Made by a program: the position numbers and the translations under genes. Below the pieces are notes generated by a model that did not search any database, was not told the origin of the DNA, and saw only the letters and a program-made list of their open reading frames with translations. Below are positions 22,240-52,483 of a stretch of DNA of 64,000 bases, in pieces. Within the stretch, counting starts at the first letter, position 1; the number at the start of each line of letters is the position of its first letter. The DNA is from Elsinoe ampelina (Eukaryota), in the NCBI GenBank assembly GCA_010093995.1, contig ML992502.1:199868-263867 (forward strand), read 5' to 3'.

Positions 22240-24039
<1,800 letters not shown>

Positions 24040-24473: not shown

Positions 24474-24474
24474 T

Positions 24475-24635
24475 TGCTTCTCACAGGAATCGAACCTGTG
24501 ACCTCGTCATTTCGACCGAGAGCAACCCGAAGAACGAGTGCCAAGACTACTAGTGACGCGCTCTACCCTTCAAGGTGTTAGCTTTATTCCTGTGTTGTTC
24601 AGGAAGTGTGGAAACTCACACTGAGCTAGAGAAGC
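24475..24635 (-). tRNA. tRNA-Thr(AGT) with two introns: spliceosomal-type insert in the D-loop (24568-24619) and a canonical 37/38 intron (24511-24547)
   Basis: Exons 24635-24620, 24567-24548 and 24510-24475 join to 72 nt: GCTTCTC TA GCTC AGT/GGTA GAGC G CGTCA CT AGT A/A TGACG AGGTC ACAGG TTCGATT CCTGT GAGAAGC A. All four stems pair perfectly; B box present; two T5 runs downstream. Confidence 0.92.
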
Positions 24636-24994
24636 ACGTTTTTGATGGGAGACCGCAAGGTAGCAAATTATATGTAGTTTTGTGTGGCTCGGCCGCTTAC
24701 GGCGCACGGACCGTCCCCTCCCGAATCCACGGAACATCTGAACATGTACTTTGCGTGTGAGATCACCACATCTACCCTGACATAATTCGATCAGTACCTG
24801 CCTCAATTACACTGTAGGGCGCCAGAACATGGAATACCTCGTGAGAGATAATATGTAATTGGCGGGCAACTATATCAAGATTTGAGGTCGTCAATCGCAC
24901 CTCAGCCACGCAAGCAATTGTCGAATTGCTTCAATAAGACCCGGCTCTGGTGAGAATTGCAGGGCGAATAGTACAATATATTGATCACCCGGTC

Positions 24995-26440
24995 ATGGCA
25001 AATTCCAACAACGACCATGCAATCATCGACGATACAAAAGATGCAGCACGCCACCTACGAGAACAATTCATCATACCGTCAAGGTCCCAGCTGAAACGCA
25101 CAACCTTAAAGGCGGTGGGAGAGCCTCTCCAAGATGCAGATATCAGACCTTGCACCTATCTATGTGGCAATTCTCTCGGGCTTCAACCAAAATTGGTCTC
25201 ACAATACACTGCAGCATATCATCAAACGTGGGCGTCGAAAGGAGTTTATGGCCACTTCAAAGAGATTGAAGATTCGCCACTACAGCCATGGCTGAACGTG
25301 GACGACGCTGTCGCAGAAGACATGGGCATCATTGTTGGTGCAGGTAAAGACGAAGTAGCTGTCATGCAGACTCTGACAGCAAACCTCCACTTCGCCATGT
25401 TGTCCTTCTATCGCCCGTCCAAGAACCGCTACAAAATAATCATTGAGGGTAAAGCCTTTCCCAGCGATCACTATGCCATTGAATCTCAACTGCAACACCA
25501 TGGCTATGAACCCTCAAAAGCAATGATCACCATCGAGCCCCCATCTCCAAGCGTTCCAACTCTTACAACAGACCACATCCTCTCCGTCATTGACGCCCAC
25601 GCCTCTACCACGGCCGTTCTTCTCCTCCCAGCCATTCAATTCTATACCGGTCAATTCTTCGACATCGCCACCATCACCGCCCACGCACAGTCCCGCGGCA
25701 TCACAGTGGGCTGGGATCTCGCGCACGCAGTCGGCAATGTACCCCTGCAGCTGCACGACTGGAACGTAGACTTCGCAGTCTGGTGCAACTACAAGTACAT
25801 GAACTGCGGTCCCGGCGCAATCGGAGGACTTTTCATCCACTCGCGTCACTCATCTGCCTCCGCGTCTCCCTTACCACGACTAGCAGGATGGTGGGGATCC
25901 TCGAAGTCTTCACGGTTCGCCATGACAAACACCTTCGACCCTATCCCCGGTGCAGCTGGGTGGCAACTGTCTAATCCATCGGTTGCAGATCTCACGGCGG
26001 TCAGGGCGAGCCTTGATGTCTTCAAGATGACCTCCATGGCGGAATTACGAAAGAAATCGCTCGTCCTGACGCAGTACCTACAAGATCTCCTGCAGTCGCT
26101 TGCAGAGAGCGAGGGTAGCAGCAGGGAAAAGAGCTTTGAGATCATCACCCCTCTTGATCCGGAGCAGAGAGGCGCTCAGCTGAGTATCAGACTATCACCG
26201 GGATTACTGGATGGTGTCATGCATGTTTTGGAGGAGGAAGGGGTTGTAGTAGATGAGCGCAGACCGGATGTCATCAGGGTAGCGCCGGCACCCCTGTATA
26301 ATACCGCTGAAGACTGCTCACGATTCGTGGAAGTATTTGGGGTAGCGCTGAAGAGGGTGAAGGGAGGCAAGACAGGGACGAACGGAGCTACGATGGTGGA
26401 AGCAGGGAAGGAGGCCAAGGGATGGAGTGAGGTGAAATGA
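24995..26440 (+). CDS. BNA5: Kynureninase
   Basis: YLCGNSLGLQPK, IEGKAFPSDHYA, GWDLAHAVGN, PLP lysine in WCNYKYMNCGPG, QRGAQLS, RVAPAPLYN. Confidence 0.95.
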   Translation: MANSNNDHAIIDDTKDAARHLREQFIIPSRSQLKRTTLKAVGEPLQDADIRPCTYLCGNSLGLQPKLVSQYTAAYHQTWASKGVYGHFKEIEDSPLQPWLNVDDAVAEDMGIIVGAGKDEVAVMQTLTANLHFAMLSFYRPSKNRYKIIIEGKAFPSDHYAIESQLQHHGYEPSKAMITIEPPSPSVPTLTTDHILSVIDAHASTTAVLLLPAIQFYTGQFFDIATITAHAQSRGITVGWDLAHAVGNVPLQLHDWNVDFAVWCNYKYMNCGPGAIGGLFIHSRHSSASASPLPRLAGWWGSSKSSRFAMTNTFDPIPGAAGWQLSNPSVADLTAVRASLDVFKMTSMAELRKKSLVLTQYLQDLLQSLAESEGSSREKSFEIITPLDPEQRGAQLSIRLSPGLLDGVMHVLEEEGVVVDERRPDVIRVAPAPLYNTAEDCSRFVEVFGVALKRVKGGKTGTNGATMVEAGKEAKGWSEVK

Positions 26441-26803
26441 GGACCATTATTGGGGGAAAGAGCACGAGCCGGGACTTGGTAGATACGAATATTACACAAG
26501 TAGCACTTACAAGCACAAATGTGATAGTTCAAGTCCTGTGACCAAACGCCGAAGAGTGACCTCTAAGAGTCTGCATCAATTGTTTAAGTATTCTCACGTA
26601 GTCTGACCATCCTCTAGTACAACGCCTACAATTTGCCACTGCTCAAACCGGCGTAGAGATCGCTGAAGAGATCGCTGACTGTCCGCAAAGTGTCCTTCCG
26701 ACCTTGGTCAAACATCCTGCCGAGGAGTACCTCCTTAAGCATGGTACGACCAGACCACAACCACAGCTTCTTCCTTCATAACATCCAGCGTGGAAATAAT
26801 CCA

Positions 26804-27918
26804 TCACTCCTCTTCACTATCACTCTCATCCGAGTAAGTCGCCGTACGTGAGTATTCATTACCAAACTCATCGTAGCAGTGATCCACGCAGATCGCTGCT
26901 TCATTCATGCCCTTCTTGATGCACTTCAAGCAAAGACCGCGGCAATAGCGATCGAAATCGGTCTTCTTCATCCTACGAAGCTTCCTTTCGAATCTATGAG
27001 TGCACAGTTCGCAGTCCATCTCGAGAAATTCCATGCCGTCCCTGCAGCGGCAAACAATGGTGCAAGGAAAACGTGTTTCTTCGCTAGTGATCTTATCGAT
27101 GGTGAATATTCGAAGCAGATCATCCCCAGCGTCCCTCAAAGCCTGATCACTGGCAGAACTGCTGAATTTAGGAAGCATTTCCATGCCGGCTTCGTCGACC
27201 TTGGACTTGCGAGCGAACCGTTCGATACGAGCATAGCATTCCCTGATGGCGGATCGGGCTAGGACACGTTGACCTTCGAGGTGAGCTGTCGGGCGATCAG
27301 TATACACTTTCCGGTAGTGTGATGTGACTTACCATATATGATGGACCGGATATCATCGGAATGTGGCGGCATGAGTGATGTGAAACTTTCGATCGATCCG
27401 TGCAGCAATTCCAAAGTGAGGTCGTAAAACTCGTCCTCTTCATCCAAATGGTATGCCAGTAGCAAGGGGATCTCCTTCTGCAGCTGAAGAGAAGGAGCCA
27501 CTCCGTTGCGATCATGCCAAAAATATACATACCGCCTAATGATAGCATTGAGGCATAGATACTTGTCGCCAACTTCGAACACATCGAATATCTCCCTGGA
27601 TGTGAGAGCTGCCATCGAGTCGTCGATTTGAAGGTGATGGGCCGCCTTTAACAACACCTCGAAGGGCTTCGGATTATCTTCCGGGAAGTCGATACGGGTG
27701 ATATAACCGGCAGCAAGGTTATACCCCTCGGCCCACCTCTCAGAGAACATAGCTTTGAAGACCGGGGAGAAGTCGGAGAGCATTGCAGAAGACACTCGGA
27801 AGACTCTGGACTGATCGGATCCGACACAGAGCTCCACATCGTACGGGTCGGAGAAGACGATGTTGGCGGGTGGTCCTTCATAGCTCTTTCGCGGTCCTCG
27901 TGCTATGGTGTCGCACAT
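26804..27918 (-). CDS. BTB/POZ-domain protein with Cys-rich C-terminus (paralog 1)
   Basis: DVELCVG..FRVSSAMLSDFSPVFKAMFS..WAEG, FPEDNP, GDKYLC; intron 27286-27332; C-terminal GLCLKC. Confidence 0.82.
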
Positions 27919-28195
27919 GGTGGAGTGGTGCGACGCAGACTCAAAGATCGTGAAAGACTACCATTGAGTGAGTGTTGATAGAACGAAAGGTGAAGTAAGA
28001 AAAAAATTTATATAGAAGAGAGGTAGCGTGAGTTGCGATTGGCATGTGACTGCTTGGCAGTATCACATGTCACCCTCTCTGTTACGGCAATCCATGGTGT
28101 CAGTCAGTGAGACGGCCATATTATGCTCTTTTTCTACGAGTATACAATCCAGCCCAGCTTCGACGCTCCACCACGCTGCAAGTATCTCGCAGACC

Positions 28196-29284
28196 CTATC
28201 CACCGGAAATATTGTCGTCAATCCCAATGTGCTTAGTGCAGAACTCCGGCTCAAACACACCTTCTTTGACACAGACTAGGCATAGTCCGCAGCCGTAACG
28301 TTTGTAACCGACCTCATCAAGCGCCAATACAGCCAAAGTTCCGCTTGACACCCAGGACCCCCGAGACAACCCCGCTCGTTGTGTCCTAACGCGGCGCATG
28401 CAAACTGAGAGTCGTCGAACATCGCTTCATGCAGAAAGTCCATTGACCAAGAGAGGGGCGTGTCAGGGACACTAGCGTGGTAGGTTTGAAGCTTGCATAA
28501 AGCCCATGGCGCGGTGCCGCTATGACTGAGCCGTCCACAGCAATTGACGAGTGCCCTCCTTGCTGATTCGCGCTTGAGTTCCAGGAGATCTGTTGTTTTG
28601 TGAGTACTGTGATCCGACCCACGGACGTCATGGTGGGAGTATACCGCAGATTGCGTGTGGTAAACCGTGATCACCTTCTGGTAGGCAACCTGCGAATGGA
28701 CAAACGAGGCCCTTCACCATCTCATGGGCTACGGTGCGGAATCCTTCGGCGTTATTGAATACGAAGCTGGAACTTAGCAGGGTTCCATAGTCGTCCAGGC
28801 CTCTTGTATCCCTGACCAAGCGGTCGAACAGTGTAGCTCCGCCATGCTTCCAGAGAGCCTTACGGCAGTCGTACTTGTCGCCCAGCATCGCCAGCTCCAG
28901 TAAATCATCGGGTGTAGCGAGGTCATCTCCAGAGCCAAGGTCCACTGGTAGTTCATGAGCGGTCTGGAGTACAAACTTGAGAGATCTTGCTTCTTCGTCT
29001 TCAAGGTGGATCAGAATCGAATCGGTCGACGAGAGATGCCGCCCTTCGGCATATCTTGGTGAGAATAATGCTTTGAACACCGGCGAGAAAGCAGTGAGAC
29101 GGACTGAGGAGACCAGGAAACTGGTAGAGACTGGGTGGTCAACTGTAAGGAGGACGTCGCGTTCTTCGCAGATGACTATTGTGAAGGAACCAGCAAGAGG
29201 AGTCTCCCCTCTGGCGATCGATGCGATATCCATGCTCAAGTCTGATAACTTCATTCGTGAAGTGCTGGTAGTGAAAGCAATCAT
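28196..29284 (-). CDS. BTB/POZ-domain protein (paralog 2), apparently frameshifted near the 3' end
   Basis: DVLLTV...FLVSSVRLTAFSPVFKALFS..YAEG, GDKYDC; intron 28590-28644 at the same position as in paralog 1. The homologous GLCLVC tail lies in another frame (stop at 28196), whereas the spliced frame stops at 28276. Confidence 0.7.
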
Positions 29285-29423
29285 GTAGGTTGTGAAGAGA
29301 TCGCCAGAAGAGAAGGTGATTCACGGAAATGGCAGATTTTGATATACGCCATGGTCGAGTGAGAGCTTGGTATATTCACATGTCATCTTCACACTGTTGA
29401 ACGAAAGAGATGCATGAATGATA

Positions 29424-31382
29424 CTACCCATCACAAGGCCAATGAGCCTGTATCCAAGAGCTGATGAACGTCGTCAAGCTCCTCCCGTCCCCGATCAGCT
29501 CCCCTGGTCCAGAACGTTTCTCACCTAAGTATCGCAAAGCAAGGACAATCCACCTCTCGATGAACTCATTGTAGATTAGATCCACCGTCTCTGGAGGATT
29601 GGTGTCATCGATCTCCACATTTGAGCCTACCACGTTCGGTGTGTGGTAGAATCTGATCGGAGCATGAATTGTGTCGTCACCGGGAGAGCTTGATGAAGCA
29701 TCGTCGTGCGTGGTGTAGCCTGGGGTGAGGTCGCCATCATCAGAAGAAACAGCTCGTGGCCCATGTAGCGAAATAGGCTGTTGACTATCTGGTTGGATAT
29801 CTGCGATAGGAGGTGTAGCATACATCGGCGATCGAACAGGAGGTTGCGGAGGAGTCAAATCTCGGAGCATCTTCTCGCGGGCGATCTCAATGCTGTAAGA
29901 CTCAAGGTCTAAATGGTCGTTTCCGGAAGCGACGAGGTCCCGAAGCATGATCGGACCTTTGTTGTTGAGCAGCTGTAGAATCTTGTTTGCCTTCTCATAC
30001 GGCACATCTTTGAGTCGTCTCAGGCTACTGGTGAAGGGAGAGAGCAGGAATGTCGTGTCTATTGTGAATGGTCCCTGGAATATGTCGAATCTCATTGCAC
30101 CAGAATTGGATAGAACGATTGCTGGACGCACTTGCTTTTCGTCCGAAGTGGTAATGTTCGCTCCGATCCATGGGAGTACTTCGGTATCAAGCCAGGTGAG
30201 CAGGCTCTCCTTGGAAGGATATGGTGCACGACTCAGCCAGTAGGTCTGCGGAGCGCACCCGTAAGCTTTGTCCAAATTGAGCTTCTTCCTGGCTGCGGTG
30301 ATAGCCTCTGTTGCGTTTTTCCCAAGATCAGTAGCAAAGGTGCTAGTATTGAAACCCGAATGAGCGTGCAGTGAGTATAAGTTATTGTCGATATATAACC
30401 TCCCAAATTTCAGGCTTGCCTTTGTCGACGGCGCCTTGGGTGTTGACACGCCTGTGATTGACTGGAAGCCGATAGTCTCCATGTATCTGCCACTTTCGAG
30501 GCCGACTGAGGCTTTGTCATAGATAGCATAGTCCCTTATATGCGTGTGGCCACCAAAGAATTGGATTGGCACATCCCACTGTACCGATCGGATCGCTTTG
30601 AAAATGGCGGTGGTCTCTGTACTGTCTCTTACGGGAACATGGCCTGCGACCACGAAGAGATCAACCTCACGATCCCGAATAGCATCTTGGAACCACTTCT
30701 GCTTCACAGTTTCCTCGACTGATATGACGACCGTATTGTTGGCATTGCCATGGAAGTCGAACAGGAATCCAAATGCGATAATGCGGATGCCTTGGTTCTT
30801 GGTAGTGAACTTCCGATAACGAGGCGCGAGAGGCTCCCTCTCGCCCGTCTCAGGGTTATAAATATCGAGGTTCGAGGCGATATAGTTGTTCTTGTACGCA
30901 GGCACGGTCGTGTAGTACTCGTTGATTGAAGAGTTGGCCAGGTAGAGTTCGTGGTTTCCTGGTGTTATAATGTCGATGTGCTGCTGTGTGAAGATATCAA
31001 AGGTGTATTTGCCTTTCGGATCCGATGCATCGTATAGTCCATTTCCCTCCACTCTGTCGCCTGTATCGACTACCAGCAGATCACTTCCATCTGCGTCCGC
31101 TCTTGCTTTCAAGTGTTGGGTAAAGGAGATATAATCACCCCAGTCAGCGGAGTATTGTGCTCTGCAGAAGGGTTAGCCTCCATCTCGAGCACAAAGGTTT
31201 CATGAAGTCTACTCTTGCAAATGACCTCCATGCCAGCCGTGGGTGTCGGTGGTGTGGAGGAAGTTGAGCTGTCCCCAAGGCAGCTCTCTGAGGGGAGCTG
31301 GCACGGGTGATGGTGCCGAAGGCTGAGCAGCATATGCTGTTGCCAGCACACTGAAGACGGAACAGGCTTTCCACGCTGCCAT
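29424..31382 (-). CDS. Secreted/vacuolar calcineurin-like metallophosphoesterase, 5'-nucleotidase family (YHR202W-like)
   Basis: Signal peptide [60 protein letters not shown]; intron 31162-31212. Confidence 0.88.
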
Positions 31383-31637
31383 CTTCGATCAAGATAAAGG
31401 GTGGTATCAAGCAAAGCAGACAGAGCGACTGTTTCCAAACACTGGGACCTCGATGGACAACATGTGGCGCAGAGCATGTGACGATTACCGCTGTGGCGTT
31501 TGTGGCTGGTGTCTAAGGTACCCGCGAAGCTCTGACCACTCGTTCACAAATGTTCATCTGCAGTGATCGACCTCTGCTGTCCAGTGCTCTCACTCCTACG
31601 ATCACCAGCGCCTGGTGCGCCCCTGATTGTACGTACC

Positions 31638-32611
31638 ATGGCGTCCCGGTCGCCTTCGTACGCGCGCTCCGTGTCACGCGGCAGATCATACACGCGATCA
31701 CCTCCACCAGACCAGGATCGCTCACGATCCCCTTCAAATCGCGAACGACGAAGCTACAGAGATGATTCGAGATCACGCAGTCCACGAAGATCACCCAATG
31801 GCGCGCCGCCATCTGGTAGGAGATACCGGAACCGCAGCTTCACCAGGAGTCGATCAAGAAGTCACTCAAGAAGTCCCTCACCAGTGATGCCCCGGAGCTC
31901 AAAGATCGTCGTCCAAAAACTCACAAAGAACATCAACGAGAACCACCTCCAAGAGATCTTCAGCGTCTACGGCAGAATCGAAGACATAGACATGCCCCTC
32001 AACCGCGCCTGTGAGCTCCCCACCAACCCACCCTAACCCCCTCGCTAATCCTCCCAGACATGACCAACCGCGGAACAGCCTACATCCTCTTCCACTCCCC
32101 GCTCGCCGCCGAAAAAGCCATCGCCCACATGCACGAGGGCCACATCGACGGCGCCCAAATCAACGTCAGCATCGTGCTCCCGCGCCGCCGCTTCTCCCGC
32201 TCTCCGCCCGCCCGCAGACCACCGCCGGACCGCTTCGGCGAGCCGCACAGATTCAGGGACTCTGGTCCCCACGCAGGCCCACGAGGTGGTGGAGGTGGAA
32301 GAGGAGAGGATAGATATCGCTCTCCTCCGCGACGACGCTCGCCTTATAGACCGAGTGATAGGAGGGGGAGAGGGAGGGACTACACGCCGCCACCGAGGGA
32401 CAGATCGTTCAGCCCGCGCAGGAGCAGGAGTAGAAGCAGGAGTCGTGGGTTTATGAGGCAGAGGAGTTATTCGCGCAGTCCGCCGCGGAAGAGGAGAGAT
32501 GATGGTCCGCGACGAGGGGGGAGGGGGAGGGCAGTGGGGAGTGTGAGTTCTGGGAGTTTTTCGAGGAGCAGGAGTCGATCGATGGACAGGGCGAGGGAGA
32601 GGAGGAGATGA
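31638..32611 (+). CDS. RNPS1-like RRM protein with RS-rich flanks
   Basis: RS repeats; RRM KIVVQKLTKNINENHLQEIFSVYG...NRGTAYILF...AIAHMHEGHIDG; intron 32011-32057. Confidence 0.85.
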
Positions 32612-33022
32612 TACCCCATAGAGGACGAGTGAGAATGAGACATGAAGCATGAGAATGCAGCACCAGCCATGAAACAATACCACTGCACTCGTGAAAAGTG
32701 AAATAAAATCAGAGACCATAAAACTCGAAGTGGTATTCTGCTCTATAACATTTCCCACAACGCCATACCATCGTAAACATGCTCGCTGGCCGTCTCCTCT
32801 CGACTGCTCCGGGTAATGTTCTCATCTGTCCAATGCCTTGCCATCCTCACTTCCTACCCCTCGTCTCCACGTGGTATTCATCACTTCCACCTAACTACTA
32901 GCTCATCCCATCTCCCCCTTCCTCCATCGGCGAATTTCACGATGATATCTCGACATGACCAACAGCTTCTCTACAGCCATCCCACCGTTGACGCCGGCGC
33001 GTGATGCAGGGCCCAAGCGTGT

Positions 33023-36000
33023 CTACCGCGACCCATTCACGCCTGGACTGACGGGCGATTGTAGCGCCGCTTGCTGTTGGGCCGCCAGTTGATCTGCTTG
33101 AGCGACGGCGGCTTCGATGACTTGTCGTTCGTCGGCGGAGAGGTGTTTCGTTAGGTTTTCGTAGACTTGGGGGTGTTGTTGTTGGCATTCTGGGAACAGT
33201 GAATATTAGTACATAGATGGGGGTTTGGGTTGGAACGTACGTAGTAAGCTCGTCTTGAGCAGACTGTAGGGTTCAATCTTGTCGAGCGGTGTTTCTAGCA
33301 AGCTTTCTTCTTCGAGCTCTTCCTCATCATCATCCTCGCCGCTTGCCGCGCTGTATTTGCTTGCTTGTTGGCTGAGGAAGTCGAGGTACGCTGTGCTCTC
33401 GTCCTTGACGTCGGCTGTGTCGTCACCCTCTTCGTTTGTCCAGTCGACCTCGGCTTCCCATTCGTCCTCTTCGTCGTCATCGTATTCGCCGGACAGACCT
33501 AGGTCATCTTCTTTTGTCGCTTCTTCGCGGTTCTTCTCTGCCGCTGGGAGGGTCTGGAATAGTCTGACCATACCTTGAAGTAATCTCGGCCAGCCAGGTT
33601 GAACGCTCTGTGGGATTTGGTCGGCCGGGATGACCAGGAGAGCAGAGATGGCGCATATCGATAGCTTCTTGTCGTGAACACGAGTGAACATGTCGATACT
33701 GGAGAACCACAGGCTGAAGAACTTATTCGTCCAGCCATTGGTCTCCAACACATGTAGCGCAAGCGACGGGTTGCAGTAAATGCCGTTGATCACCATCTCC
33801 ATGAGATGAATCTTGTACGACTTGACCTTGTTCTTGTCGTTTGTAAGATCAATCATGGCGAGTGAGACAAATTCTGGGAGGTGCTGGTCAATATGGCCAC
33901 GGAGGTTGAGCATCATGACTTCGGCAAGCTTGCAGCCGCAGATGCGGTCTACTCCGCCGACTTTGTCATCCTTGAAGATTCTGCGAACCATCTCCACGAT
34001 GGCTTCGAGGTATGGTGGGTGCTGGATCATCTGAGCGCTTCCATAGGCGACAAAGTTCTCTAGTGCTGGCAGCATGTCTTCGAGATACAGCTCTCCACCA
34101 GAGTTGAAGGTCTTCGTGATGAGCTCAAATCCACCCCACATGGTTGGTGAGATGGTCTTCGCAGAGTAGGTACAGCTGTCGATAATTTCGAACACCTCGT
34201 TGTACAGATCGTAAAGTTTGTGTTCGAGAGTAATGGTGACGACAGGCATGAGAATAGTTTCGAGGTGTGCAAGGACGTCGGGGGTGCTTTCGAGTGTGAG
34301 GATGAGGGTGCCGATGGTCTGGAGAACACCAAGTGCGGTGATGCTCTTGTCGTCCAAGAAGTCGCCGTAATCGCCATCGTCGTCGCGACCGGAACTTCGT
34401 TCAAGGATTTCGCGAACAATTCGCAGGTAGGTGTCACGGAGTTGCTCGCTCAAGGCGACTGCGAACGGTGCAAGCTCAGCAGCGAAGACTTCGACAAAGT
34501 CTTCCATGACATTGGCCAGAGCATCTACATCCACTTCGTTTGCGAGCTTGAGCAGCTGCTGCATGATTTGAGGGATGTTCTGCTGCATCGAAGTGCGGAT
34601 AATGTCGTGACGGATGAGTGGTTGCAATGCCAAGGCAGCCTCCACCCTGACGGGGAGATCTGGATCGGCCATGGATTCGAGGATGTTGCGGTAGATGATG
34701 AGGAGATTATTCGGATCCTTGAATTCCAGCTGCTCAAACTTCTCCAGCGTGTCGCATGCTCTGGCGCGGAGGAAGCCGTGCTTGCTGCGGAACTCTGGGA
34801 AGACGTGGCGGACGAAGAAGTACTCGACTTGGTCTGCGATAGGACTCTTCTTGCCGAGGATTACTCCCGAGAGTGTTCCGATCATTCGCAAAGCTCCCTC
34901 TTTCTGGACAGGGTTCTTCTGGTCATCCGGCGCAGCCTCGTACTTGTTGACCACCTCGTTAATGAAGGACAAGACATCGAAGACCTGCTTCCGTCGCGCC
35001 TTTGTGAGAGTGACCAAGAAGTTCGTAGCCGCCACATCCGGCGAGGACACCTCCTCATAGAAGTTGAGCTTCCGATGTAGGTACTCCTGTGGTTCCGACA
35101 TGAACAGCTCGAGGTCGTCTTCCGACTGGCAGAGCACGGGGAACAGCAGATGCTCGATTAGAATCTTCATGTGCGGCTTGAGGTTCTCCCACATCGACTT
35201 TGGCTTGACGCACTCGTCCATGAAAGCCAGGGTGTAGGACAGGCAAGGCTTGCTGAGCCATGTGGTCTTGCCGACCCACTTCTCGATCTGCTCCAAGTAC
35301 CCGCGCAAGATGACAGGCGCAAAGTCCTTGATGAAAGATTTGGCAACCTCGCCGTAGTCCTCCTCGTTGTTCTTTTGCAGACTCGCTGGGTTGCCGTACC
35401 TAACGAACAGCCTGTTGAGATTGACGTATGACCACTTCTTGCACTTCCACCAGTGGTTGATCTCCCGCTCGTCTTCATCTTCCAACATGGCGCTTTCCGG
35501 TGGAGTCTTGCCGACAACAGTGAGGAACAAGGTGCACCAGCCAGACATGGCTTCATGGCCGCGGAGGTACTTGGGGAGGTCGAAGTAGATCGTGTGCTTG
35601 TATGCTTTGAGAACAGTGCGGAGCATTTCACCGGCTTCCAGACTCGTCTCGTTTACCAGACTGTTACCAATCTGCAGCAGATGCGGAAAGGTCTGCTCCA
35701 CGATACGGTCAAAGTCGGCCCTGGTGTCACCCACCTTGAACCTGTACGTTCGGCAGATCGCAAGTAAGCATTGTAGACCAGCAAATACTGAGGGAATGTC
35801 CTGGCTGTTGAGCAGAGTCGTGGTGGTTTGCAAGAATTCTGGCCATTGCTGCGGGAAATCGTAGTGTAAGATCTTTTGCAGAGTCGCGACGAGTTGTGCT
35901 CGCACCTGCGGGGTGGCTGCTCGGAGGATGGGGAGTATACGGCTCTTTACCGCAGTCTTTTCGCTTTCGGCCAGAGTTTTGCCCTTCTCGCTCTCATCGG

Positions 36001-36322
36001 TAGGAGACCATCTCTTTGTCACGCGATTCTTCAGGTAGACCGAGCCTGATTGGTGTTAGACCGGCGAGCATGTTCACTGTACCGTGACTTACTAGATAGT
36101 CGCACACCAGCATCTTGTTCGTTCTCGAGGATATTAAGTAGTGCGTCTGAGAAACCGGGGTTCTCCTCTGCCTGGTAGTTGTCAGGGTCTTGAAGCTCTC
36201 GACGTGGGCATTGACGGCTACCGTACATTTTTGAGGTCCAATTCTGCCTGTCGCCTGACATCCGAGTTCGCGTCCAGCGTGGCCTGTATGCCGTTGCGGA
36301 GGGCTGTCGCGTCCATGGCCAT
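33023..36322 (-). CDS. NMD5: Importin-7/8 family karyopherin (Nmd5/Sxm1-like)
   Basis: IBN_N start (ATLDANSDVRRQAELDL..VYLKNRV), DFPQQWP, WWKCKKW, FTRVHDKKL and acidic tail. Introns 36172-36226, 36046-36092, 33190-33240. Confidence 0.9.
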
Positions 36323-41051: not shown

Positions 41052-41685
41052 TGTGAAGCTGTTGATGAGATCAACGGGTCAGTATCGGAGAATGATAACC
41101 GTCCTTGACCATGTCTCTAGACTAGCATGCTGGGAAGTTGACTTTTGGTTGGAAGTGCAACCCTGTGAATCTACTGTGTTTCGGAGATCTGGAGATCTGC
41201 AGAGCTGTCTGCAGAGCCGCATTCTCGGACGTGACGTCAGGGCCCAGAGAGGCACTTTCAACACCGGGCACCACCTCAATCTTAATGCTATGAGTACTGA
41301 CCGTACTTTATTGGCGCTGATACCGATACTTCAAAGTCGAGTGGGTCAGCCTCATGCTCTACGAATTTTGATCACGCTTAGAGAATTTCTGTCTGATGGG
41401 CATCGTTGCAATGCCGCCATTCTACGAAGCCCGCCGGATGTAATCGAATTAAATGATACATCTGCAGGAGCCTTTGGGAGCTTAATTCACAAACCCGGAT
41501 ACAATCTCTGTAATGTATGCTTCTGGCTAGGCAATGTTATAGCTGGTCGTGCCTCCTACTACACTATCAGGTTCAGGATCGATACTAGCTATATGAAGGG
41601 GGGACGCCATCATCAGGTTCTGGTAAGTTGAAAACCCACAAATGACCGCAACGCCTCGCTGTAATACAAATTTGACCTGCCTCCA

Positions 41686-42548
41686 TCACCAATCCATGCC
41701 AGCCATTGCCTCTTCCTCGTCCGCGAAATCATCCCTTTGCCTGCCGGGAGCCGGTGTCTTCTCTGATCCCTGTTGCTCAGCCATCAAGGCATCGAGTTCA
41801 TCTTCGTCCGGCTCAGCCTGCGCCGATAACTCGCCATACAGTCCCGATGCCGAGGTATTCTGCTCGGAAGGGTTTTGCTCAACTGGCTTCCTTACCCCAG
41901 CACTACCAGTATCTTCGCCATTGTTCTCCTTCCATTGATCTGGCTCCGGCGCCTCATTGTCTGGCGGTGGTGTGTCTTTCGAATCCTGGTGTCTGGGTTT
42001 GCCCTCGTCAATCCACTCCTTTCGCATCATTTGTATGCGCTTCTTGTGTCCCAACTTCTCAATCATGGCGAGTCCGTCCGCGAATTTTGCTCTTGGGTAC
42101 AGCTCGTCCAGCCACAGTTGGTACATGTTCAGAAGTCGTGACATATCGGAGAACTACCAGCAATTAGTGGTCGCCTTGCGCTTGCGTGAATTGTCACACC
42201 TCGTGACCTTTGCCTTTGAATTTGGTCTTTTTGGCTATCTTCCTGAGTCGTGGTATCCCCTTGGATGAGAGTATCCTGGTTCATTCAATTCGTCCGCCAG
42301 GCTTGTCCGATGCCAGGATCTGCTCACCTTTCCTCATCAAGCTTTGCAATAGGCTGTCGTTTCTTGGTGATCACAATCTCTTCATCAAGATTTGAGGTCT
42401 CTGGCCTATTCTCTGTTCTGATGGACTCATTTGCAGCGGTGGTAGTTGCCGACCTGCGGACCTCGTCTAATCCAACATCCGTGTCGAACAGCGCATCGAG
42501 ATCATCCGGAGTCGCAGCACGAGCGTCTTGCGATATAGCTGAGGGCAT
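41686..42548 (-). CDS. CSM3: Replication-fork protection protein Csm3/Swi3/Tipin
   Basis: KKRQPIAKLDEER/ILSSKGIPRLR...FKGKGHE/FSDMSRLLNMYQLWLDELYPRAKFADGLAMIEKLGH; introns 42276-42327 and 42154-42199. Confidence 0.9.
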
Positions 42549-42639
42549 GCTGCGCTGATTCCGGTCAGACGTGGTAGCAGTGAGTAGTAGATGTGTGTAA
42601 GAACGAGCGAGCGCTGATCGGACAGAGGTGCGCGGGGAG

Positions 42640-42666
42640 ACGCGTTTCGCCAAAAATCGCACGCGT
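42640..42666. promoter_or_regulatory. Two MCB (ACGCGT) elements in the CSM3/THOC1 divergent promoter
   Basis: ACGCGT at 42640-42645 and 42661-42666, about 90-120 bp upstream of the CSM3 ATG. Confidence 0.6.
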
Positions 42667-42875
42667 TTGTTGGTTAAAGTGATCTCACTCAGCCCTATCA
42701 GTCTTGGCGTACATTTTCCACCTTCTCCTTCATGCTTCACGTGCTCTCTAATAGCTCTACAAAATTGGCCGACCAGCAACATAAGCGAAATTCATGAGAT
42801 CGACGAACTTCTGGGGCTCGCTCGTGTAATATCTAATGAGAACGAACACAAACGCAGCAAACCGAGGGCCTAACC

Positions 42876-44899
42876 ATGGCTTTCGATGAGGAGCTCCATC
42901 CATCAGCAGTTGCAGTGGCTGAAGATGGATTGCGACAACTACTGCAGATATCATCACTGAAAGGTGCGACTGGCTCAATAAACCGTCCTCTGGTAGCCGA
43001 ACAAGTCAACGACAAGCTTCCTGAGGTAGTGGATGAAGTAGAAGCGAGTGCTATTCCCAGTCAATCACCCGTGATCCTGGAGACTGCTGCACGAAAAGTG
43101 TTCTATGACATAGTGGTGAGTATGCGCTCCAGAAGCGATGGAAACGACCAGCTCATTCAGACAGAAACGAATCACAGTGGACCAAGCAGAAGCGCAGCAG
43201 CTATGGACTTTCCTTGACCTTCTGCTACTTGTTTGCGAATACAGTACGAATATTCATTTTCTCGTTGAGCACTCACTGATCCTCGCGCAGGACAATCTGG
43301 GCGATCAATCATATGGTACCTCATTGAGGAGCTCGTGGAAAGTCAGACTGCGGACAAGTGCAGACTGATCTTTGATTATTTAGACGTGCGGAGGGAACGA
43401 CTCACGCAGGTATGTTATATCAACTTGACGCTACCATTTAATGCTGAACTGTGGACAGCGAGAATTCCAAGTCACGCATCTGATCATACTGCGCACTTGC
43501 AACGAGTTACTGCGACGTCTGTCTCGAGCAGAAGATGCTACATTCTGCGGAAGAGTATTTTTCTTTCTCTTCCAAATTTTTCCATTGGGCGAGCAGAGCT
43601 CAGTGAATCTCCGGGGAGAGTTCCACATCGACAATGTCACTCTCTTCGAAGAAGACCCCAATTCTGAATCGGTCTCGGCGTCCGAGGATGCAATGGACAC
43701 GGATCCCAAGCCAGACGCTGATGCAGAACCCAAAGATCGACGAAAGCGAAAGAAGTCCACGTCAAAGAAGCTCAAACGTCAAGCCGAGGATATCAACAAG
43801 TTCTACCAGGTGTTCTGGCGATTGCAACGTGATTTCTCGACACCGCTGCGATTGACCGAGAGCGAGGAAGCATTCAGCAATTTCAAAGCTGGTCTCGAAA
43901 GCACCATTACAAAGTTCAGCAACACAACAGTTGTCAAAACGAAATCGATCACGGATGAGTCTCGGGGCACCAAGCGAAAGCGAGGTCAGGATGAGCCCAA
44001 CGATTATCAGGGTAATTACAATCCCAAGTACTTGACCAGCAAGGACCTGTTCGAGCTCGAGCTTAGCGACCTTTCATTCCAGCGACACATCCTTGTACAA
44101 GCGCTAATCCTTCTGGACTTCCTGCTTTCTCTTTCCGAACAGGCACAGAAGAAGATTGATGTATCCGGGATATCGAGGACGAACTCGTCCGTGAACTATG
44201 CATACCGCCTATCCGAAGAAAAGGTGAGGTTGGAAGAACCTTCCTGATTCGAGATTGTTGCACAGGCCACAGCTAACAATTTCGCAGAAAGCATGGGTAC
44301 AATCTGCTAGGGCCAAGATTGCGGGATATTTGCAGCAGGGTCCTGACGGAAATTTTTACTATCGCATGGTCAGCACCGTCCTCGCGCGTGACAAGAACTG
44401 GATCTGGTGGAAGATTCAAAAGTGTCCGCCAATAGTGGCAGATGCAGTGCCAGCAGATGATTTCATCGAAGCAAAGAAGGCTGCAGCGAATGCGACGGCT
44501 AATCGGCGAATGCGTGCAAGGCCAATGGGAGCGATGGATTTGACGTTTCTATCAGAAGCGGACGGCGCCAAGGGTTTGGACAAACTCAAAGACCCGGCAA
44601 GGTTCTCAACCCCGTCCGTACCAGAGCTACTGGCGGAAGCGACGAGGTCGGAACTGGATCTTGACTTTGCTGAGGGTGAGGAGAAGCAAGCGATCCAGGC
44701 TAAGATCGACAGTGTTTCCTGGCGAGCAATCAGGGCTACGTCGCGGACTATGCTCTCACAGCTGGACAAGTTGGACCCAACCAAGAAGATTGCGGAACAA
44801 CTTGCCGGCGTGCCTGAAGAGAACAGTAACCCAACCACACAAGAAGTGGACAACTCGACATTAGTGGAGCACAAAACGCCAGAGGTTCAAGTTGCATAG
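42876..44899 (+). CDS. THO complex subunit 1 (THOC1/Hpr1), multi-exon
   Basis: LRTCNELLRRLSRAEDATFCGRVFFFLFQIFPL, YNPKYLTSKDLFELELSDLSFQRHILVQALI, VLARDKNWIWWK..CP; several GT-AG introns (first donor at 43116). Confidence 0.88.
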
Positions 44900-47800
44900 G
44901 CTAGCACCTATATCGTTCACGATCTGGACTAAATGGCCATTACACGAACGTGGTCACCTAGAAGTAGCGCCTGCATACACTACTGCAGATGGTGTGCACT
45001 ATCATTCAGGATACAGAGATACCCCGGCATGACTTGCCTAATTGATTGCGGAGATCCCTCGTACTTTCCTGCGGCCCGTGGCGGGACGACTGTAGCAAGA
45101 CCTGCCTCTGTATTTTACTCGCGCGCACGGATGACCACCATGGATGATATCGAGCTGTGACTCGAATCCGCGAGAAGAGCACGAGCATACTCTCGGTCTT
45201 CTGGCCGCGATCACATGCCATATGCATGTTTGTGGATACACTGCCAAACCTTCAAACTTGTCACAGATCCTTCGCTGCAAGTATGATATGCGACGGTAAA
45301 TCCTCCGAGGCAGGTCGACCATGTACCGAGACATTTCTGAGGACATGGCTCCGTGGACTTCTCCCGTACCCTATTAACTACGGCTGAACGAGTACCTCCG
45401 AGATTACCTCAGATCTCTCGTCCGTGCAAATTATACAATTACAGAGCCTCGGAAGGGACCTGATTAACTTGATCATCCATGCAAATGATCAGACAACCGC
45501 TCCTTGAGTGCGCCACGGTTTCATGATTGCAGTCCATGACTAGACAAACTCCACAATCAATACCGCCCACTCGGGTTCCGCTTGTTACACGATCTTCTCC
45601 TCCATCATCATGTTCACCATCAGCACCAGCTAACATTCACAGTCCTCTCCATCCGCTAGCTTGCTTGGACCGTGAGCGGCTATGGAGTGACCACATTCTG
45701 GCTTTTGGTGCAACCATTCTGCCGCTTTTTCACTAGGGTAAATGATGCGCCTGCAGATGATTATTACACAATCAAGGCCGCACGAGCCCTACAACACGGG
45801 GCCTGGATCAACGCGATCTACAATCTGCCCCAATCATCAAATGCCGAGTACAGTACTGCAGGCTGTAGGACAAAGGTTGCAGTGCGACCAGCCAACTCTG
45901 TCGGATCTGGCTACTATTGTAGCCCAACACCCATTTCTGCCACCGTCTAGCTCCCGACTAATTCGGCGTCAAATATGTTAAGGTTTTTGATCTTGTTTCT
46001 TCATCTTCACAAGCGGCCATCAAGACATCGATCATGTCATCAAGAGACCCGCATGACAAGCTTGCAGCCCGAGCCCTAACTCGCACCTTTTTACCTGTTG
46101 TAAACGTTACTATAAATGGATGTTTGCATGCGGAGAACTCTAGGAGTTGGATCTCCGGCTTGGTGAACAGACCGCAAGAACGGTCATTGAATCAACGTTG
46201 CGTATGGCAGAAAGCCATGTGAGTGTCAAAAAAGTGACAGCTCATGGCTTCCGTCTGGCCGGAGGGGCCATCGATATCTACACCACGCTAACAAGCCAAA
46301 CAGTAACGATCCTCCCGCAGGTGAGTGATACGAAGAACCAGGAAATCGTAGATGTTGCATCAGCCTCCTGCCGCGGCAGGCCACTTGCCGCAAGCCACCA
46401 TCGACTCGGCGCGGCCCGTGAGGGAGGTCGAGAAGTGAGAAGACAATGTACGGAGTAACTCCCAGAGGATGGTCGAATAATGAGAGGGAGCGGTGGGCAT
46501 CTCGCACGAGTTCACGCGGTGAGATCAAGGATCGCTTCAAGCTGCTTGTCCATGGCTCGTGATCGGGTGGACACGGCGTCCCGTAACTCTATGAGCCACC
46601 GTTCAGGACGCCAAAGCGCGCCAGAAGCCAGCCTCCTTCCGTTGATGCAGGTACTACCAGGTCCTAGCACAGCGCCAATCTCAACGCAATCGCACGACAA
46701 TTCGTGTCTTCTTTCCCCGCTCGTGGTAAGAGATTGAATCTGTATCAAGGATCGCCCGGTCGAAAAGGCCCACGATTGTCAGGCTGTTCCTTTCGGCATT
46801 TGCAGTCCTGCTCATCTTGGGATTTGCCATCTCCGGTCACGGTTAGGAGAGGCATTATTTCCTGCCGGGTGTAACACTAAAGCGCGCATCTTTGGGCATG
46901 AACGCGACTGACGCTGGGCCCTGAACGACCACGATCAGCGGTCAAGAACGTCTTGGTTCTTGACATGTACGAGTGCTTGGGGGCGTCCTGCAATGCATGA
47001 ATCAGTGCTAGACCCTGTGCCGACAACGACTCTTGCGCATCACAAGCAGACAAGACTCTGCAAACTCTGCGGGAGGCTTGGGAGGATGGGGCAAGCCCCG
47101 TGTCATGGGCGGGAAGGCGCTCGCGCCTGCAATCACCGAGCAGCAGTTCGTCGAGTTCCTCCAGCGGTCCAAGCTGTTCGTCCCCGCAAGCCATGCTTGT
47201 CTGGACTAGCGGGCTGGCTGGATAATCAGGTGACCAACAACCCTCTGACGCCCCAGCCAGCCATTTGCTGTCGTCCTCGCGCCCAGACATCTGGTCATTC
47301 GTCTATGTTTGCAGGCGTGCTTTGCTCGGAACTGTATCTTGCAGAATCAGCTGAACTTAAACGGCCTCGCTTCGTTGCCGGCGGCCGCACATGCTCTGGC
47401 GATCGTCGTTTGGTAGCCCAGCAAAAGTATCTGCTCGAGCATGACGATATGTCCAGCTGGTCATGGCAGACGTCTTTTTGCCTGACCAGGCTCGACGCTT
47501 GTGCGCTCCGCGTGTAGTCTACACCTCTAGCCAGTCACCGAACAGGACAAAGGCGGAGTAATTTCTACTGAAATTCGGGATCATTCATGACGGCGGATCG
47601 TGCCGCAGCAAAGCAGACAAATGACCGAGGCTTGTGGCCTTCTACGCCTCTTGTCATTCGACGAATCCTCATCTACATCCCGGTCACATTTCTTGGCTGC
47701 GGCAGTCGCGTCCGGTCCTGAAATCATGTCCCTCGACAGCTGCATCCTCAACCCAGCTCGCGATTCCGACTCCGCCAGGGTCGCAGGGCTGGCTAAGCTC

Positions 47801-48765
47801 AGTGAGATGCCGCTTCGTGGCCTCTAGCCACTCCGGCCAATCTCGTCGGATCGATGCCGCCGCACGGCAGCGTTCACTGGCCTGCCTGTGCACGACTCGC
47901 CTGTTGCTCCAGTGCTCTACTCACGTCCACCGCATGCCACTAGGACCATCGAACCTGCTGCTTACCACTGTTCAGCTCTGATGCTACAGCGGTAGTGTCA
48001 TCCACCGCCCTCTGATACCCCACATATCCGACGGCCTAGCTTTCTGCTCCTCCAGAGGGGCAATTTATCTCTCTTCTACGCGAGTCAAGCCCTTGTGCTT
48101 GCGCAAACGCTAGTATTCTTATTCCATGAACCGTCGTCTAGACTGGGATGCCATCTTTGTCTGCCCCATCTGAATCTGCGCTAACTGCCTGTTTACCACT
48201 TCGAGCTGGCTTTTCCCCAGGTCGGATCCTTGTCGATCTCAACATCTCTTCATTAGCTCTTGCTGCCCCTTCTGAAACATTCATTCTCTTTAGTAAACCA
48301 GAACCTCCCTTCATACAACTCCCCCAGCCCTTTTGGTTGGCCCGTTCGACCCATTCAGAGACAGACCTTTATCCCGCTCCACCCACCTCTATTTCCTGGT
48401 TACTTCCACCGCGGTTGTTCGAGGTATGTGGTTCTCCGGTACTACCAGATCTTGAGCTGCCATTCAATATTCTCCCCTGCTGAACCGCCCTTTACTTACC
48501 AGACTTCTAGTTCTGTTTGCAAACAATAATCCAGGGTCTGCAAAGTCCTGACCAGCCACCTCTTCAAGGTCGCATTCAGACTTGAATTTGTCTATCTGGA
48601 CTCGGCTTTCAGCTCGTCTTTCCCTGGAGAGCTCCTGGTGCTGTAGCTGGTGTATGTTCGACGAGCATTTGACAGCTTCATCTGCCGGCATGGTTCACAT
48701 CGAATGCTAAACTTGCGGAACCTCTCTCCTGGTAGGAACTCCGATCGGCCTCCGCGCGCCTTCAC

Positions 48766-50622
48766 ATGTATTCTTCTAGAGTAGTACAGCCGCTGTCTCC
48801 ACCAAGCTCACCGCGCATGTCGGGTCAGGACCATAAGCCAGTTGAGCCGCTCTGGAACGCACAGCAACAGTCTCAGTCAGGCTACGCACCTGTCGGCTCC
48901 AGGTCACAACCGCCCAACACGCTGTCCTATCCTTCTTTCTACAACGCCCGTGAGAGCGGTCAACACGGTGTTCACACCCTCCCGAACATCCACGATGTGT
49001 ACGGAAACCTAGGTCAACCATCGCCGACACATACCGGCAGTCAAAGTCACTCGGCTAGCGGCAATGAGATCGACTTCACGAGAAAAGATACTGGCTCAAG
49101 CGCTGAGTCGCTGTCTTCCCTCCAGCATCGAGACTCGGTGGTGATGCCTTCCTCTAGTTCTCAGCATCCAGGAGGTCAACCTTCTGGCTATGACGAATCT
49201 GAAGACGCAGACGATGACGATGAGATCTCGGACGAGATCGACGAGGGGAAGGAAGGAGGGGAGGACCGGCCGATGACTGCTGCCGAGATCAGACAGCAGA
49301 AGAGAAAGATGAAACGCTTTCGTCTCACGCACAGCCAGACGAGGTTCTTGATGAGTGAATTTGCTCGACAGGCGCATCCGGATGCCGCGCATCGAGAGAG
49401 GCTATCCCGGGAAATCCCTGGCCTGAGTCCTCGTCAAGTGCAAGTTTGGTTTCAAAACAGGTAGGCTCACCCACCCGCTGCTTTTCAGACAGGCATGGAA
49501 TTCATTAATCTGACAGACGATCCAGGCGAGCCAAGCTCAAACGGCTGAGCGCTGAAGACCGCGAAAGAATGATGCGATCGAGAGCCATACCCGAAAGCTA
49601 TGGTATGGGACTGCCGATCAACCAGCAATACATCCCGTCTCCTTCGACTGCTGGTTCAACAACTCCATCCATCCCGCAGAACCCCCCAATGAGCCGGATG
49701 GGCGATATGCGACCACTCAGTCTTGATACCCTGCGACGTGGTACTGAGCACAGTTACACAAGCCCGACTTCTGTCACCCCTGGCCTTGGATCACTGGCCT
49801 TCACCCCTCCACAGTCCGCGAGCGATGTGCAGTCGCCGATCTCGACCACAAACGAGATGGGATTCGGCTATGGTCACCGTGCCATCATGGAACAGCGACG
49901 ACCTCTTCTTCCACCCAGCCACAGCTCTGCGCCATCTTTCACGAGTAATTACGGCTCGAGTATTGGTCGGATGCCATCTTATGAACGATTGCGTACTTCT
50001 AGCGGCGACTCGCTCGGCTCACCTCTCAGGACCAGTATGTCATACTCGAACTTCTCAAACACGTCACCGCAGGCACACCAGAGCCAGGACACGAGAGACC
50101 AAGGCCAGCAAAACGCTGGGCAACAAGGCTCTCATAGTCGAGGAAACTCGCAACGCGATATGCCTCCACCTGCTGGACCGTTCGGTCTTGGATTCTCTTG
50201 TGAGGATGCTAAGGGAATTACGGCTGATTTAGGCTAATATCGTTACAGTTGAGAATATGCCCAATAATCAGTCAAGTGTCCACACACAGCAACAAGCACC
50301 ATCTACTAGTGGATCCAATCAGCCAGCATATCGAGGAATCGCGCCACCCTCCAACACTCAAGGCGCATATCCGTCTTACTTTGACTACCAAAATTCCAGC
50401 TACTCTACGCCTCAACTACCGCATTACCAACAACCTTCATTTGGCGGCTCCTACTCTTCACCTCTATCCTCAAATCCGTTCACCCAAGCACCTATGCATC
50501 AACAGCAGCAGGCGTACGGCCAGCATCAACAAGCTCACCAGAATGCTCAGCAAGAACGCGCCAAAGAAGAGCACGAAGGACATCACCAACAAGGTGGTGT
50601 ATCCATCAGCAACCCATACTGA
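48766..50622 (+). CDS. Homeobox transcription factor (resembles Podospora PAH1 type)
   Basis: Homeodomain KRKMKRFRLTHSQTRFLMSEFARQAHPDAAHRERLSREIPGLSPRQVQVWFQNR/RAKLKR; introns 49461-49525 and 50200-50248. Confidence 0.9.
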
Positions 50623-50671
50623 ACCAACAATACAAAACATACAGTACACAGTACTATGCACATAGACCATG

Positions 50672-51334
50672 TCAACATTGCGACTTCCTGCGCTGCTTCA
50701 GAGCACGATACCCCTTCACAACATTCCTCAACGCCAGTTTATTGACGACGCACCACGCGATCATGCATGCACATACAGCCAGCACGACTTTCCCTACATC
50801 ATCTACTTCAGCAAACAGATCTCTGTCCGACACGAGATCCGTCTCCACTTCAGCACAAAGTCGACACTCGCACCCCTCTGGCAGGAACGAACGCACGACA
50901 TCATTATCGACCTGCACTAAAGGCACAACCTCCCCTTCTTTGGCGCAATATTTACCGCCCATCCGCTCCTGGGATTCTTGTTTCACGCGCGCGCGTCGAA
51001 TTTTTTTTACAGCACTTTGGATCAAAAAAATTCGAGATACCCACGGCGAGGCTTGCTTTGATGTTATTGTTACGGATCTTTTCGCTTCGCGCTGTCCTTC
51101 ATGCTCGGCATGTCTTGGTTTTGGGTTGTATGGATTTGTACAGATGAGACATAGGAGGTGGAAGAGGAGCAAGAGGAGGAGGAGGCAGGGAAGGAGAGCA
51201 GGGGCGAGGCAAGGGCGGATAGCGATCTGGTATTGCACGTCGAATCGCAGAGGCAGCAGAGAGGGGTCTAGGGAGAAGAGGGAGATGTAGTTGACGAGAG
51301 AAACGGTGAGGCATTGCTCGTCGCTCCTTTGCAT
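50672..51334 (-). CDS. Possible hypothetical protein
   Basis: 220-aa ORF with two hydrophobic stretches and no recognised motif; may be spurious. Confidence 0.2.
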   Translation of the reverse strand: MQRSDEQCLTVSLVNYISLFSLDPSLLPLRFDVQYQIAIRPCLAPALLPCLLLLLLLFHLLCLICTNPYNPKPRHAEHEGQREAKRSVTITSKQASPWVSRIFLIQSAVKKIRRARVKQESQERMGGKYCAKEGEVVPLVQVDNDVVRSFLPEGCECRLCAEVETDLVSDRDLFAEVDDVGKVVLAVCACMIAWCVVNKLALRNVVKGYRALKQRRKSQC

Positions 51335-52354
51335 CGCATTTGGGTCAGTGTGCGCACCGGCTTTTGGGGTCCAGGGCTTGGGTTGGGTAGTGTCTTGTCT
51401 GTCTCTACGAAATGCATAGTATTAAGCGTGACTAATTGACTTGTCATCCCCTGTTTAAACCTTACATGGCGATGTCAGGCTCAAACTCCAGCTTTCTCTT
51501 TGACATTCACGTGCCTTTACACCATACCAGGACACAGGGATAATTGATCCTGGGCGCACCCCCCTTCTCGTCCAGAGCAGAAATCCTGCCCCCGACGCCA
51601 CGAGCATGCTTTCAGCATTCAATGACGCCTTGACTGGCATCCTGCGAAACTCTATGTCCAGAGCGTGATTGTGGCGGGGATAGGGTTGGGTGTTTCTGAA
51701 ACAGATCTACTTGCCGTGAGCCGCATCTTCGATGTCCGGGTAGACCAAGGTTGCGGGTGAAACAGCCGCTGCTGGGGAGAGAGGGGAAAAGAGGGCAAGG
51801 GGAGATAGAGGTGCAGTCACTTGAGCGGGAAGGGGCAATTTGGGAGCTTACATCCGTTCCGGGTATCGAGGAGGGAGTGATGAGCAGGGAGAGAGAGGAT
51901 GACTGAGCGGTGCCCTAGATTGTGGTTGACTTGGGGCTGGAGGGCGGTATGTAAGGATAGTTTCGAGATACATGCCGTGCTATGCTGACCGCCTATTTCG
52001 TCATGTTGCTGACGCTGATGCTGATGCACGAGGCTGTGTCTGCGACATGTTCAATGGCGTTCACCCACCATGATTGCTCAAGAGAATTTGGCGGACTAGA
52101 GCACAAAATTGCTCTTGATTCCAACCGAGCATTTGCTGAAGAAAAACTCTTTCTCAACGACTGGTTTACTCACATATAGAGACTCGTTGGGAAATGGGTC
52201 TTGCATTGTTAACAATGGTGCTGCAAGCGGGGGCCGATGCCTGCAATGCCAGGATACACGCTCGGTGGTCTCTTGCTTGAGCTATATATATGATCAAATT
52301 TGCCACCTTCGTCGATGTTCGATCGAAGACACCTGGGAATGGATGTTTTCACTT

Positions 52355-52477
52355 GCCGGGTTGGCGCAGTGGGTCAGTAGACACCCTCGGAGATCACACT
52401 CCTCAGTCTGACGGGATAACTAGTAACGCGTCGCACTTGTAATGCGAAGATCCCAGGTTCAATTCCTGGACTCGGCA
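52355..52477 (+). tRNA. tRNA-Thr(TGT) with a spliceosomal-type insert in the D-loop (52373-52423)
   Basis: Exons 52355-52372 and 52424-52477 join to 72 nt: GCCGGGT TG GCGC AGTGG/TA ACGC G TCGCA CT TGT AA TGCGA AGATC CCAGG TTCAATT CCTGG ACTCGGC A. Acceptor (one G-U), anticodon and T stems pair; T6 follows. Confidence 0.92.
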
Positions 52478-52483
52478 TTTTTT
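52478..52483 (+). terminator. Pol III oligo-T terminator of tRNA-Thr(TGT)
   Basis: TTTTTT immediately after the discriminator A. Confidence 0.8.

Follow-up and report, generated by a model that had tools for sequence, protein, structure and literature searches.

Spliceosomal introns have been described in the genes for the U6, U2, U5, and U1 small nuclear RNAs (snRNAs) and in ribosomal RNA (rRNA) genes, and transfer RNA (tRNA) is not on the list of such hosts given in a 2018 review (PMC5855946). As summarized there, the introns of fungal U6 genes have common signals on otherwise unrelated sequences, many of them look like lineage-specific gains, and the origin of snRNA introns is usually explained by the closeness of U6, U2, and U5 to the spliceosome's active site, through reverse splicing (PMC5855946). 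In the current literature, tRNA introns form a class of their own, unrelated to spliceosomal introns and with separate substrates and enzymes (PMC12530127, PMC4090602), a description still found in a 2025 paper (PMC12530127). Here, we examined a 64,000-nucleotide stretch of the Elsinoe ampelina genome (contig ML992502.1; hereafter, the window) that contains two genes for tRNA-Thr, t1 (anticodon AGT, minus strand) and t2 (anticodon TGT, plus strand), each interrupted in its D-loop by an insert of 51 or 52 nucleotides (nt) with the sequence features of a spliceosomal intron.

The two inserts are like the introns of fungal U6, other snRNA, and ascomycete rRNA genes in being short, in carrying a canonical donor, branch site, and acceptor, and in having a structured non-coding RNA as their host; and just as fungal U6 introns are mutually unrelated, the inserts of t1 and t2 are unrelated to each other. 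Unlike U6, U2, and U5, tRNA has no proximity to the spliceosome active site. Canonical eukaryotic tRNA introns, removed by the Sen/TSEN endonuclease and, in fungi, sealed by the ligase Trl1, lie between positions 37 and 38, and the 37-nt intron of t1 is one of them. The D-loop inserts, in contrast, follow gene nucleotide 16 in t1 and gene nucleotide 18 in t2 (16/17 and 18/19 by gene count). A location outside 37/38, including the D arm, is shared with tRNA introns of archaea, Cyanidioschyzon merolae, and nucleomorphs, where two or three introns occur in some of the genes, which escape standard tRNA finders, according to a 2014 review (PMC4090602). Those introns form a bulge-helix-bulge motif that is cut by the tRNA endonuclease, whereas the inserts described here have no such motif and a full set of spliceosomal signals; nucleomorph introns are also only 3–24 nt long (PMC4090602), as opposed to the mRNA-intron length of the two inserts.

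Two tRNA-Thr genes with inserts in the D-loop

The tRNA-Thr(AGT) gene t1 (24635 to 24475, minus strand) has three exons and two interruptions. Its 16-nt 5′ exon (24620..24635) holds the 5′ strands of the acceptor stem and D-stem and the AGT of the D-loop. The 52-nt D-loop insert follows (24568..24619), opening with the donor GTGAGT and closing with CTAAC and then 9 nt that end in AAG, as in a spliceosomal-type intron. The 20-nt middle exon (24548..24567) supplies the rest of the D-loop, the 3′ strand of the D-stem, and the 5′ strand of the anticodon stem, together with the anticodon AGT and the loop up to position 37. The second interruption (24511..24547), also on the minus strand like all parts of this gene, is the 37-nt intron at the canonical 37/38 site, which has no GT..AG logic and is of the endonuclease type by its position. 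The 36-nt 3′ exon (24475..24510) runs from position 38 to the discriminator and includes the B box at 24496, and two T5 runs directly 3′ of the gene (24461..24473) form a terminator of the type used by RNA polymerase III (Pol III). With both interruptions removed, t1 gives a 72-nt product whose minimum-energy fold is a perfect cloverleaf, with Watson-Crick pairs at all 21 of 21 stem positions. The canonical intron was missing from the initial annotation of this DNA and corrects it; since t1 has both a D-loop insert and a 37/38 intron, the gene would need two splicing machineries.

The organization of the tRNA-Thr(TGT) gene t2 (52355 to 52477, plus strand) is simpler, with two exons and one insert. 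An 18-nt 5′ exon (52355..52372) contains a complete A box (TGGCGCAGTGG) and is followed by the 51-nt D-loop insert (52373..52423), again a spliceosomal-type intron, which starts with GTCAGT and finishes with CTGAC and 11 nt ending in TAG. The 54-nt 3′ exon (52424..52477) extends from the rest of the D-loop to the discriminator, with the anticodon TGT and a B box at 52456, and a Pol III-type terminator of T6 and then T5 lies at 52478..52492 on the same strand. Without its insert, t2 yields a 72-nt cloverleaf that ARAGORN calls as Thr(tgt). Both genes were thus found where the initial annotation had placed two Thr tRNA genes with D-loop inserts, and removal of the inserts restores a cloverleaf in each case.

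These are exactly the two tRNA genes in the window, and both have a D-loop insert. A B-box scan of the window gave three matches, two of which are t1 and t2. We also removed in silico each of the 94,084 GT/GC..AG segments of 35–120 nt and ran ARAGORN on the resulting window; tRNA calls appeared at the t1 and t2 loci only, 3 without and 25 with the intron option. On the intact window, ARAGORN found no tRNA genes, and with introns allowed it made a single spurious call at t1, a Pro(cgg) on the raw locus that we rejected, as its D arm is mismatched. The sole tRNA match from Rfam was the 3′ part of t2 (52410-52477; 31.3 bits against a threshold of 29), in which the last bases of the insert are taken as a false 5′ acceptor strand and paired with the 3′ acceptor strand. 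The expectation that standard scanners would miss these genes is therefore borne out by both tools. From the same Rfam match, one can see how a truncated or odd tRNA might come out of an annotation pipeline at 52410-52477.

When given t1 without its D-loop insert, ARAGORN placed the second intron at 31/32 and called Ser(cga). This identity was rejected because the product has no long variable arm and because placement of the intron at 37/38 gives Thr(AGT). A reading in which the tRNAs function unspliced was likewise rejected.

The DNA of the window is nuclear and comes from an ascomycete fungus. Its open reading frames (ORFs) have Pfam matches to Ski2, eIF4G, THO1, GDS1, importin, and kynureninase, and an Atlas search with the kynureninase next to t1 returned Ascomycota-dominated clusters. 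A sulfatase gene and this kynureninase gene flank t1, which sits in their divergent promoter region.

The inserts and the mRNA introns of the window

As a reference for the inserts, we used introns of messenger RNA (mRNA) genes that are verified by RNA, namely the 10 introns among the joints listed for spliced contigs of three public runs, none of them on record as RNA, over positions 14600-34599, with intron ends slid to the splice-site register before comparison. An ORF-bridging intron predictor, which returned 1676 candidates, was too permissive and was discarded, and the RNA-verified introns stayed as the reference set. These 10 listed introns are 49–55 nt long; nine are GT-AG and one is GC-AG. 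The insert lengths, 52 nt in t1 and 51 nt in t2, lie within that range, in agreement with the earlier proposal that they are like those of local mRNA introns. Both donors have the fungal GTNNGT extension, and GTGAGT and GTCAGT are each also present among the 10 verified introns. A CTRAC branch site is found near the 3′ end of both inserts. The AAG acceptor of t1 is unusual, being used by 1 of the 10. For each insert, two cut registers give an identical product, and just one of the two is GT..AG, so the claim that only the GT-AG register has canonical ends stands. The GC-AG intron of the reference set (20784-20833, plus strand; 50 nt, GCAAGT...CTGAC...TAG) belongs to an oxysterol-binding-protein gene and is spliced in contigs of three runs.

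A strict test was set as GTNNGT, CTRAC with the branch A 6–25 nt from the end, AG, and a length of 45–60 nt. Both tRNA inserts pass, as do only 2 of the 10 verified mRNA introns. Across the window, 25 of 2,048,000 (start, length) pairs pass, real introns and both inserts included, and with two registers each, the chance of both inserts passing is (2 x 1.2e-5) squared, or ~6e-10. This joint probability speaks against the explanation that the inserts only resemble introns by chance. Fold z-scores of the inserts (−1.3 and −0.55) fall among those of the mRNA introns (−1.9 to +1.8). By every sequence criterion tested, then, the inserts are spliceosomal-type introns.

The strict scan also picks two AT-rich intron-like segments on the minus strand, at 1373-1419 and 1599-1656. 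The G+C content is 0.40 at 1-4000, as against 0.51–0.57 across the rest of the window.

The two inserts have no sequence in common: their alignment score was reached in 534 of 1000 shuffles, as the initial annotation would lead one to expect. Introner-like mobile introns are marked by many near-identical genomic copies; neither insert has a second copy in the 64-kb window, where the best other match is 11–13 nt. Because the inserts differ in both sequence and position in the D-loop, independent gains are plausible, which is also how the earlier suggestion of probable independent gains now appears.

An assembly artefact, the other form that a trivial explanation could take, is contradicted by independent data. 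A DNA contig assembled from the reads of another organism, a related species, is collinear with 24350-26446 through t1, with 181 differences over 2097 bases and 2 gap letters. That species therefore has the t1 insert too, with a similar length, a result on its presence and not on the conservation of its signals, and an assembly artefact is excluded as its source. Every word sampled from the region was also found in two DNA runs. Taken with the joint signal probability, these data make chance resemblance or an artefact barely credible.

In the relative's contig, several nearby intergenic stretches are replaced or cannot be aligned at 85%. Neutral divergence between the two species is therefore substantial, and the flawless exons of t1 are mildly informative. 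The contig also lacks the 46 nt just downstream of t1 (24304-24349) and has no 85% match over ~2.7 kb downstream of the kynureninase gene (26447-29105), part of which is transcribed in one run of the present organism. Runs deposited under a second organism name gave spliced contigs that are at least 99% identical to the window; these could come from a mixed sample, for example, of host and fungus.

Routes of removal and transcription

One alternative to the spliceosome is that the inserts are non-canonical tRNA introns removed by the tRNA endonuclease and a ligase, their GT..AG ends being incidental. Protein enzymes cut D-arm introns in nucleomorphs and C. merolae (PMC4090602), and t1 already relies on the endonuclease for its 37/38 intron. 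No bulge-helix-bulge was found at either D-loop insert in any tRNA-restoring register or in either orientation, with 0–3 of 4 pairs in the central helix, in what is a weak test for eukaryotes, given that even the 37/38 intron of t1 scores just 2/4. The flanking helices of the candidate registers were poor as well. The non-canonical tRNA introns of eukaryotes reported to date do depend on motifs of this kind (PMC4090602). In eukaryotes, the enzyme takes its measure from the mature domain, which has to be intact, and a D-loop insert breaks that domain. Removal by this enzyme would also leave unexplained both the combination of donor, branch, and acceptor signals (~1e-5 per register) and the exact local mRNA-intron length, and we regard it as highly improbable.

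Self-splicing as a group I or group II intron was excluded for both inserts, because they are 51–52 nt long, lack a significant fold, and lie in a window where Rfam found no intron family at its gathering threshold. Group I introns of bacteria, plastids, and phages are comparable in having a tRNA gene as host and in being removed by RNA-catalyzed chemistry, but they are at least 200 nt long and highly structured, unlike the short inserts of t1 and t2.

Turning to transcription, the insert of each gene is located at the 3′ edge of the A box. The A box of t2 matches at 11 of 11 positions and that of t1 at 10 of 11, where the first bases of the intron mimic the displaced ones, and both B boxes are intact. 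The longest T-runs inside the inserts are 3 and 1, so that neither has a run of four or more. The price is a long gap between the A and B boxes, which reaches 121 nt in t1 as against 83 nt in t2. An insert position that spares the A box, together with the lack of T-runs of at least 4, fits selection for Pol III expression, and from these features, the intact boxes, and the terminators, we infer that t1 and t2 have probably been kept for expression by Pol III.

The flanks of the genes also have features in common. The motif AATTTGCYACCTT lies upstream of t1 (24655..24669, minus strand), behind a TATA-like ATATAA, and upstream of t2 (52297..52311, plus strand), where it is preceded by TATATATA; a TATA-like stretch thus stands just before the motif in both cases, and the distance to the gene start differs between t1 and t2. 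The window has two matches to AATTTGCYACCTT, both upstream of the tRNA genes, with 0.36 expected and at least two matches in 5 of 100 shuffles. Downstream, a double T-run ending in TTTTTGAGC is common to t1 (24461-24473) and t2 (52478-52496). One possibility is that the shared upstream motif serves Pol III as a flanking element specific to the lineage.

The inserts might instead be spliced co-transcriptionally from a transcript of RNA polymerase II (Pol II), either read-through from a neighbor or a dedicated transcript, with RNase P and RNase Z trimming the ends afterwards. Pol II is the polymerase to which recruitment of the spliceosome is normally coupled, and both the location of t1 in the divergent sulfatase/kynureninase promoter region and the TATA-like elements upstream of both tRNA genes would suit such a route. 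The intact A and B boxes and the T5/T6 runs immediately 3′ of both genes argue for Pol III instead. Transcript ends at the neighboring genes weakly point the same way: among the contigs listed, those of kynureninase begin at 24781-24802, and the sulfatase mRNA ends at ~24130-24240 by depth arithmetic, both short of t1. We consider a Pol II origin very unlikely.

Fate of the two genes and what it would mean

The reading toward which we lean is that t1 and t2 are functional precursors whose D-loop inserts are removed by the spliceosome. They would be two live nuclear tRNA-Thr genes, each of which independently gained a short U2-type GT-AG intron in its D-loop. Pol III would transcribe the whole gene, insert included, and intron definition, the mode that serves the mRNA introns of this genome, would let the spliceosome recognize the ~50-nt insert. 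The insert would leave as a lariat, restoring an AGTGGTA D-loop, and removal of the 37-nt intron at 37/38 of t1 would be a separate task for the tRNA splicing endonuclease and ligase. Transcription, splicing, and function are in this sense predictions from the sequence. There is precedent for a Pol III transcript as substrate in Schizosaccharomyces pombe U6, whose intron is spliced by the spliceosome (PMC5855946).

To place t1 among related genes, a metagenome scan was aimed at Thr(AGT) genes with a D-loop insert of 42–72 nt, and 22 loci were returned. The D and anticodon arms of t1 equal those of the 22 metagenomic fungal Thr(AGT) genes, and the restored D arm of t1 is the sequence of the uninterrupted D arm in some of the 22. 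An insert at 37/38 is present in 13 of the 22 and absent from the other 9. None of the 22 has an insert in the D-loop; all are uninterrupted there, with a chance CTCAGT upstream. The D-loop insert is therefore rare or confined to one lineage.

This rarity is one of several points that weigh against splicing of functional precursors. The 5′ exons measure only 16–18 nt, and the RNA would carry no cap. Neither 5′ splice site has the usual AG on its exon side, and the acceptor of t1 is AAG instead of YAG. The 121-nt spacing between the A and B boxes of t1 may weaken use of its Pol III promoter. Outside nucleomorphs and C. merolae, a eukaryotic tRNA gene with an insertion in its D or T arm is presumed to be a pseudogene in the view of the 2014 review (PMC4090602). 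Finally, a search of open-access full text in PubMed Central and bioRxiv found no published spliceosomal intron in a tRNA gene, the sole phrase match being "non-spliceosomal tRNA introns."

Several of these points would equally suit a different history, in which t1 and t2 are dead or dying copies. Here, an intron or an intron-generating mobile element would have entered two redundant tRNA-Thr genes, either by transposition or in three steps, namely, reverse splicing into an abundant tRNA, reverse transcription, and recombination, and the copies would be untranscribed or unspliced while intronless paralogues do the work. The redundancy of tRNA gene families favors this history, as do the long box spacing of t1, the count of 0 among 22 metagenomic genes, and the presumption of the 2014 review just cited. 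On the other side, the two affected genes are all the tRNA genes that the window has, and the splice signals of both inserts are better than average. The exons are flawless, with the full 21/21 stem pairs in t1 and with boxes and terminators intact, and the inserts lie at the one edge of the D-loop that spares the A box and contain no T-runs of at least 4. The insert is moreover older than the split from a species in which the flanking intergenic DNA is partly unalignable at 85%. On this evidence, we judge dead copies to be somewhat unlikely, and we continue to favor functional precursors spliced by the spliceosome.

A broader proposal is that spliceosomal introns are more widespread in the tRNA genes of this lineage, that many of these genes are invisible to tRNAscan-type tools, and that the spliceosome has become obligatory for tRNA maturation. 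We put this forward tentatively, as possible but doubtful.

As far as open-access PubMed Central and bioRxiv show, mRNA-type introns in tRNA genes appear to be undescribed. If the inserts of t1 and t2 are spliced, a small, highly folded Pol III transcript with no cap and a 5′ exon of 16–18 nt would be a substrate of the spliceosome, and t1 would be one gene that needs two unrelated splicing systems. The two genes would also be a clean example of introns gained recently and independently outside protein-coding genes. With the interrupted genes escaping ARAGORN and Rfam, fungal tRNA gene counts would then be too low in some genomes. Even if the copies are dead, they would still show that tRNA genes can receive spliceosomal introns. 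If the wider colonization of tRNA genes were true, the maturation of some tRNAs, Thr(AGT) among them, would depend on the spliceosome as well as on the tRNA endonuclease, and the textbook rule of separate substrates for the two intron classes would be broken. The lineage would then provide a natural system for the splicing of uncapped Pol III transcripts and for intron gain by reverse splicing into non-spliceosomal RNAs.

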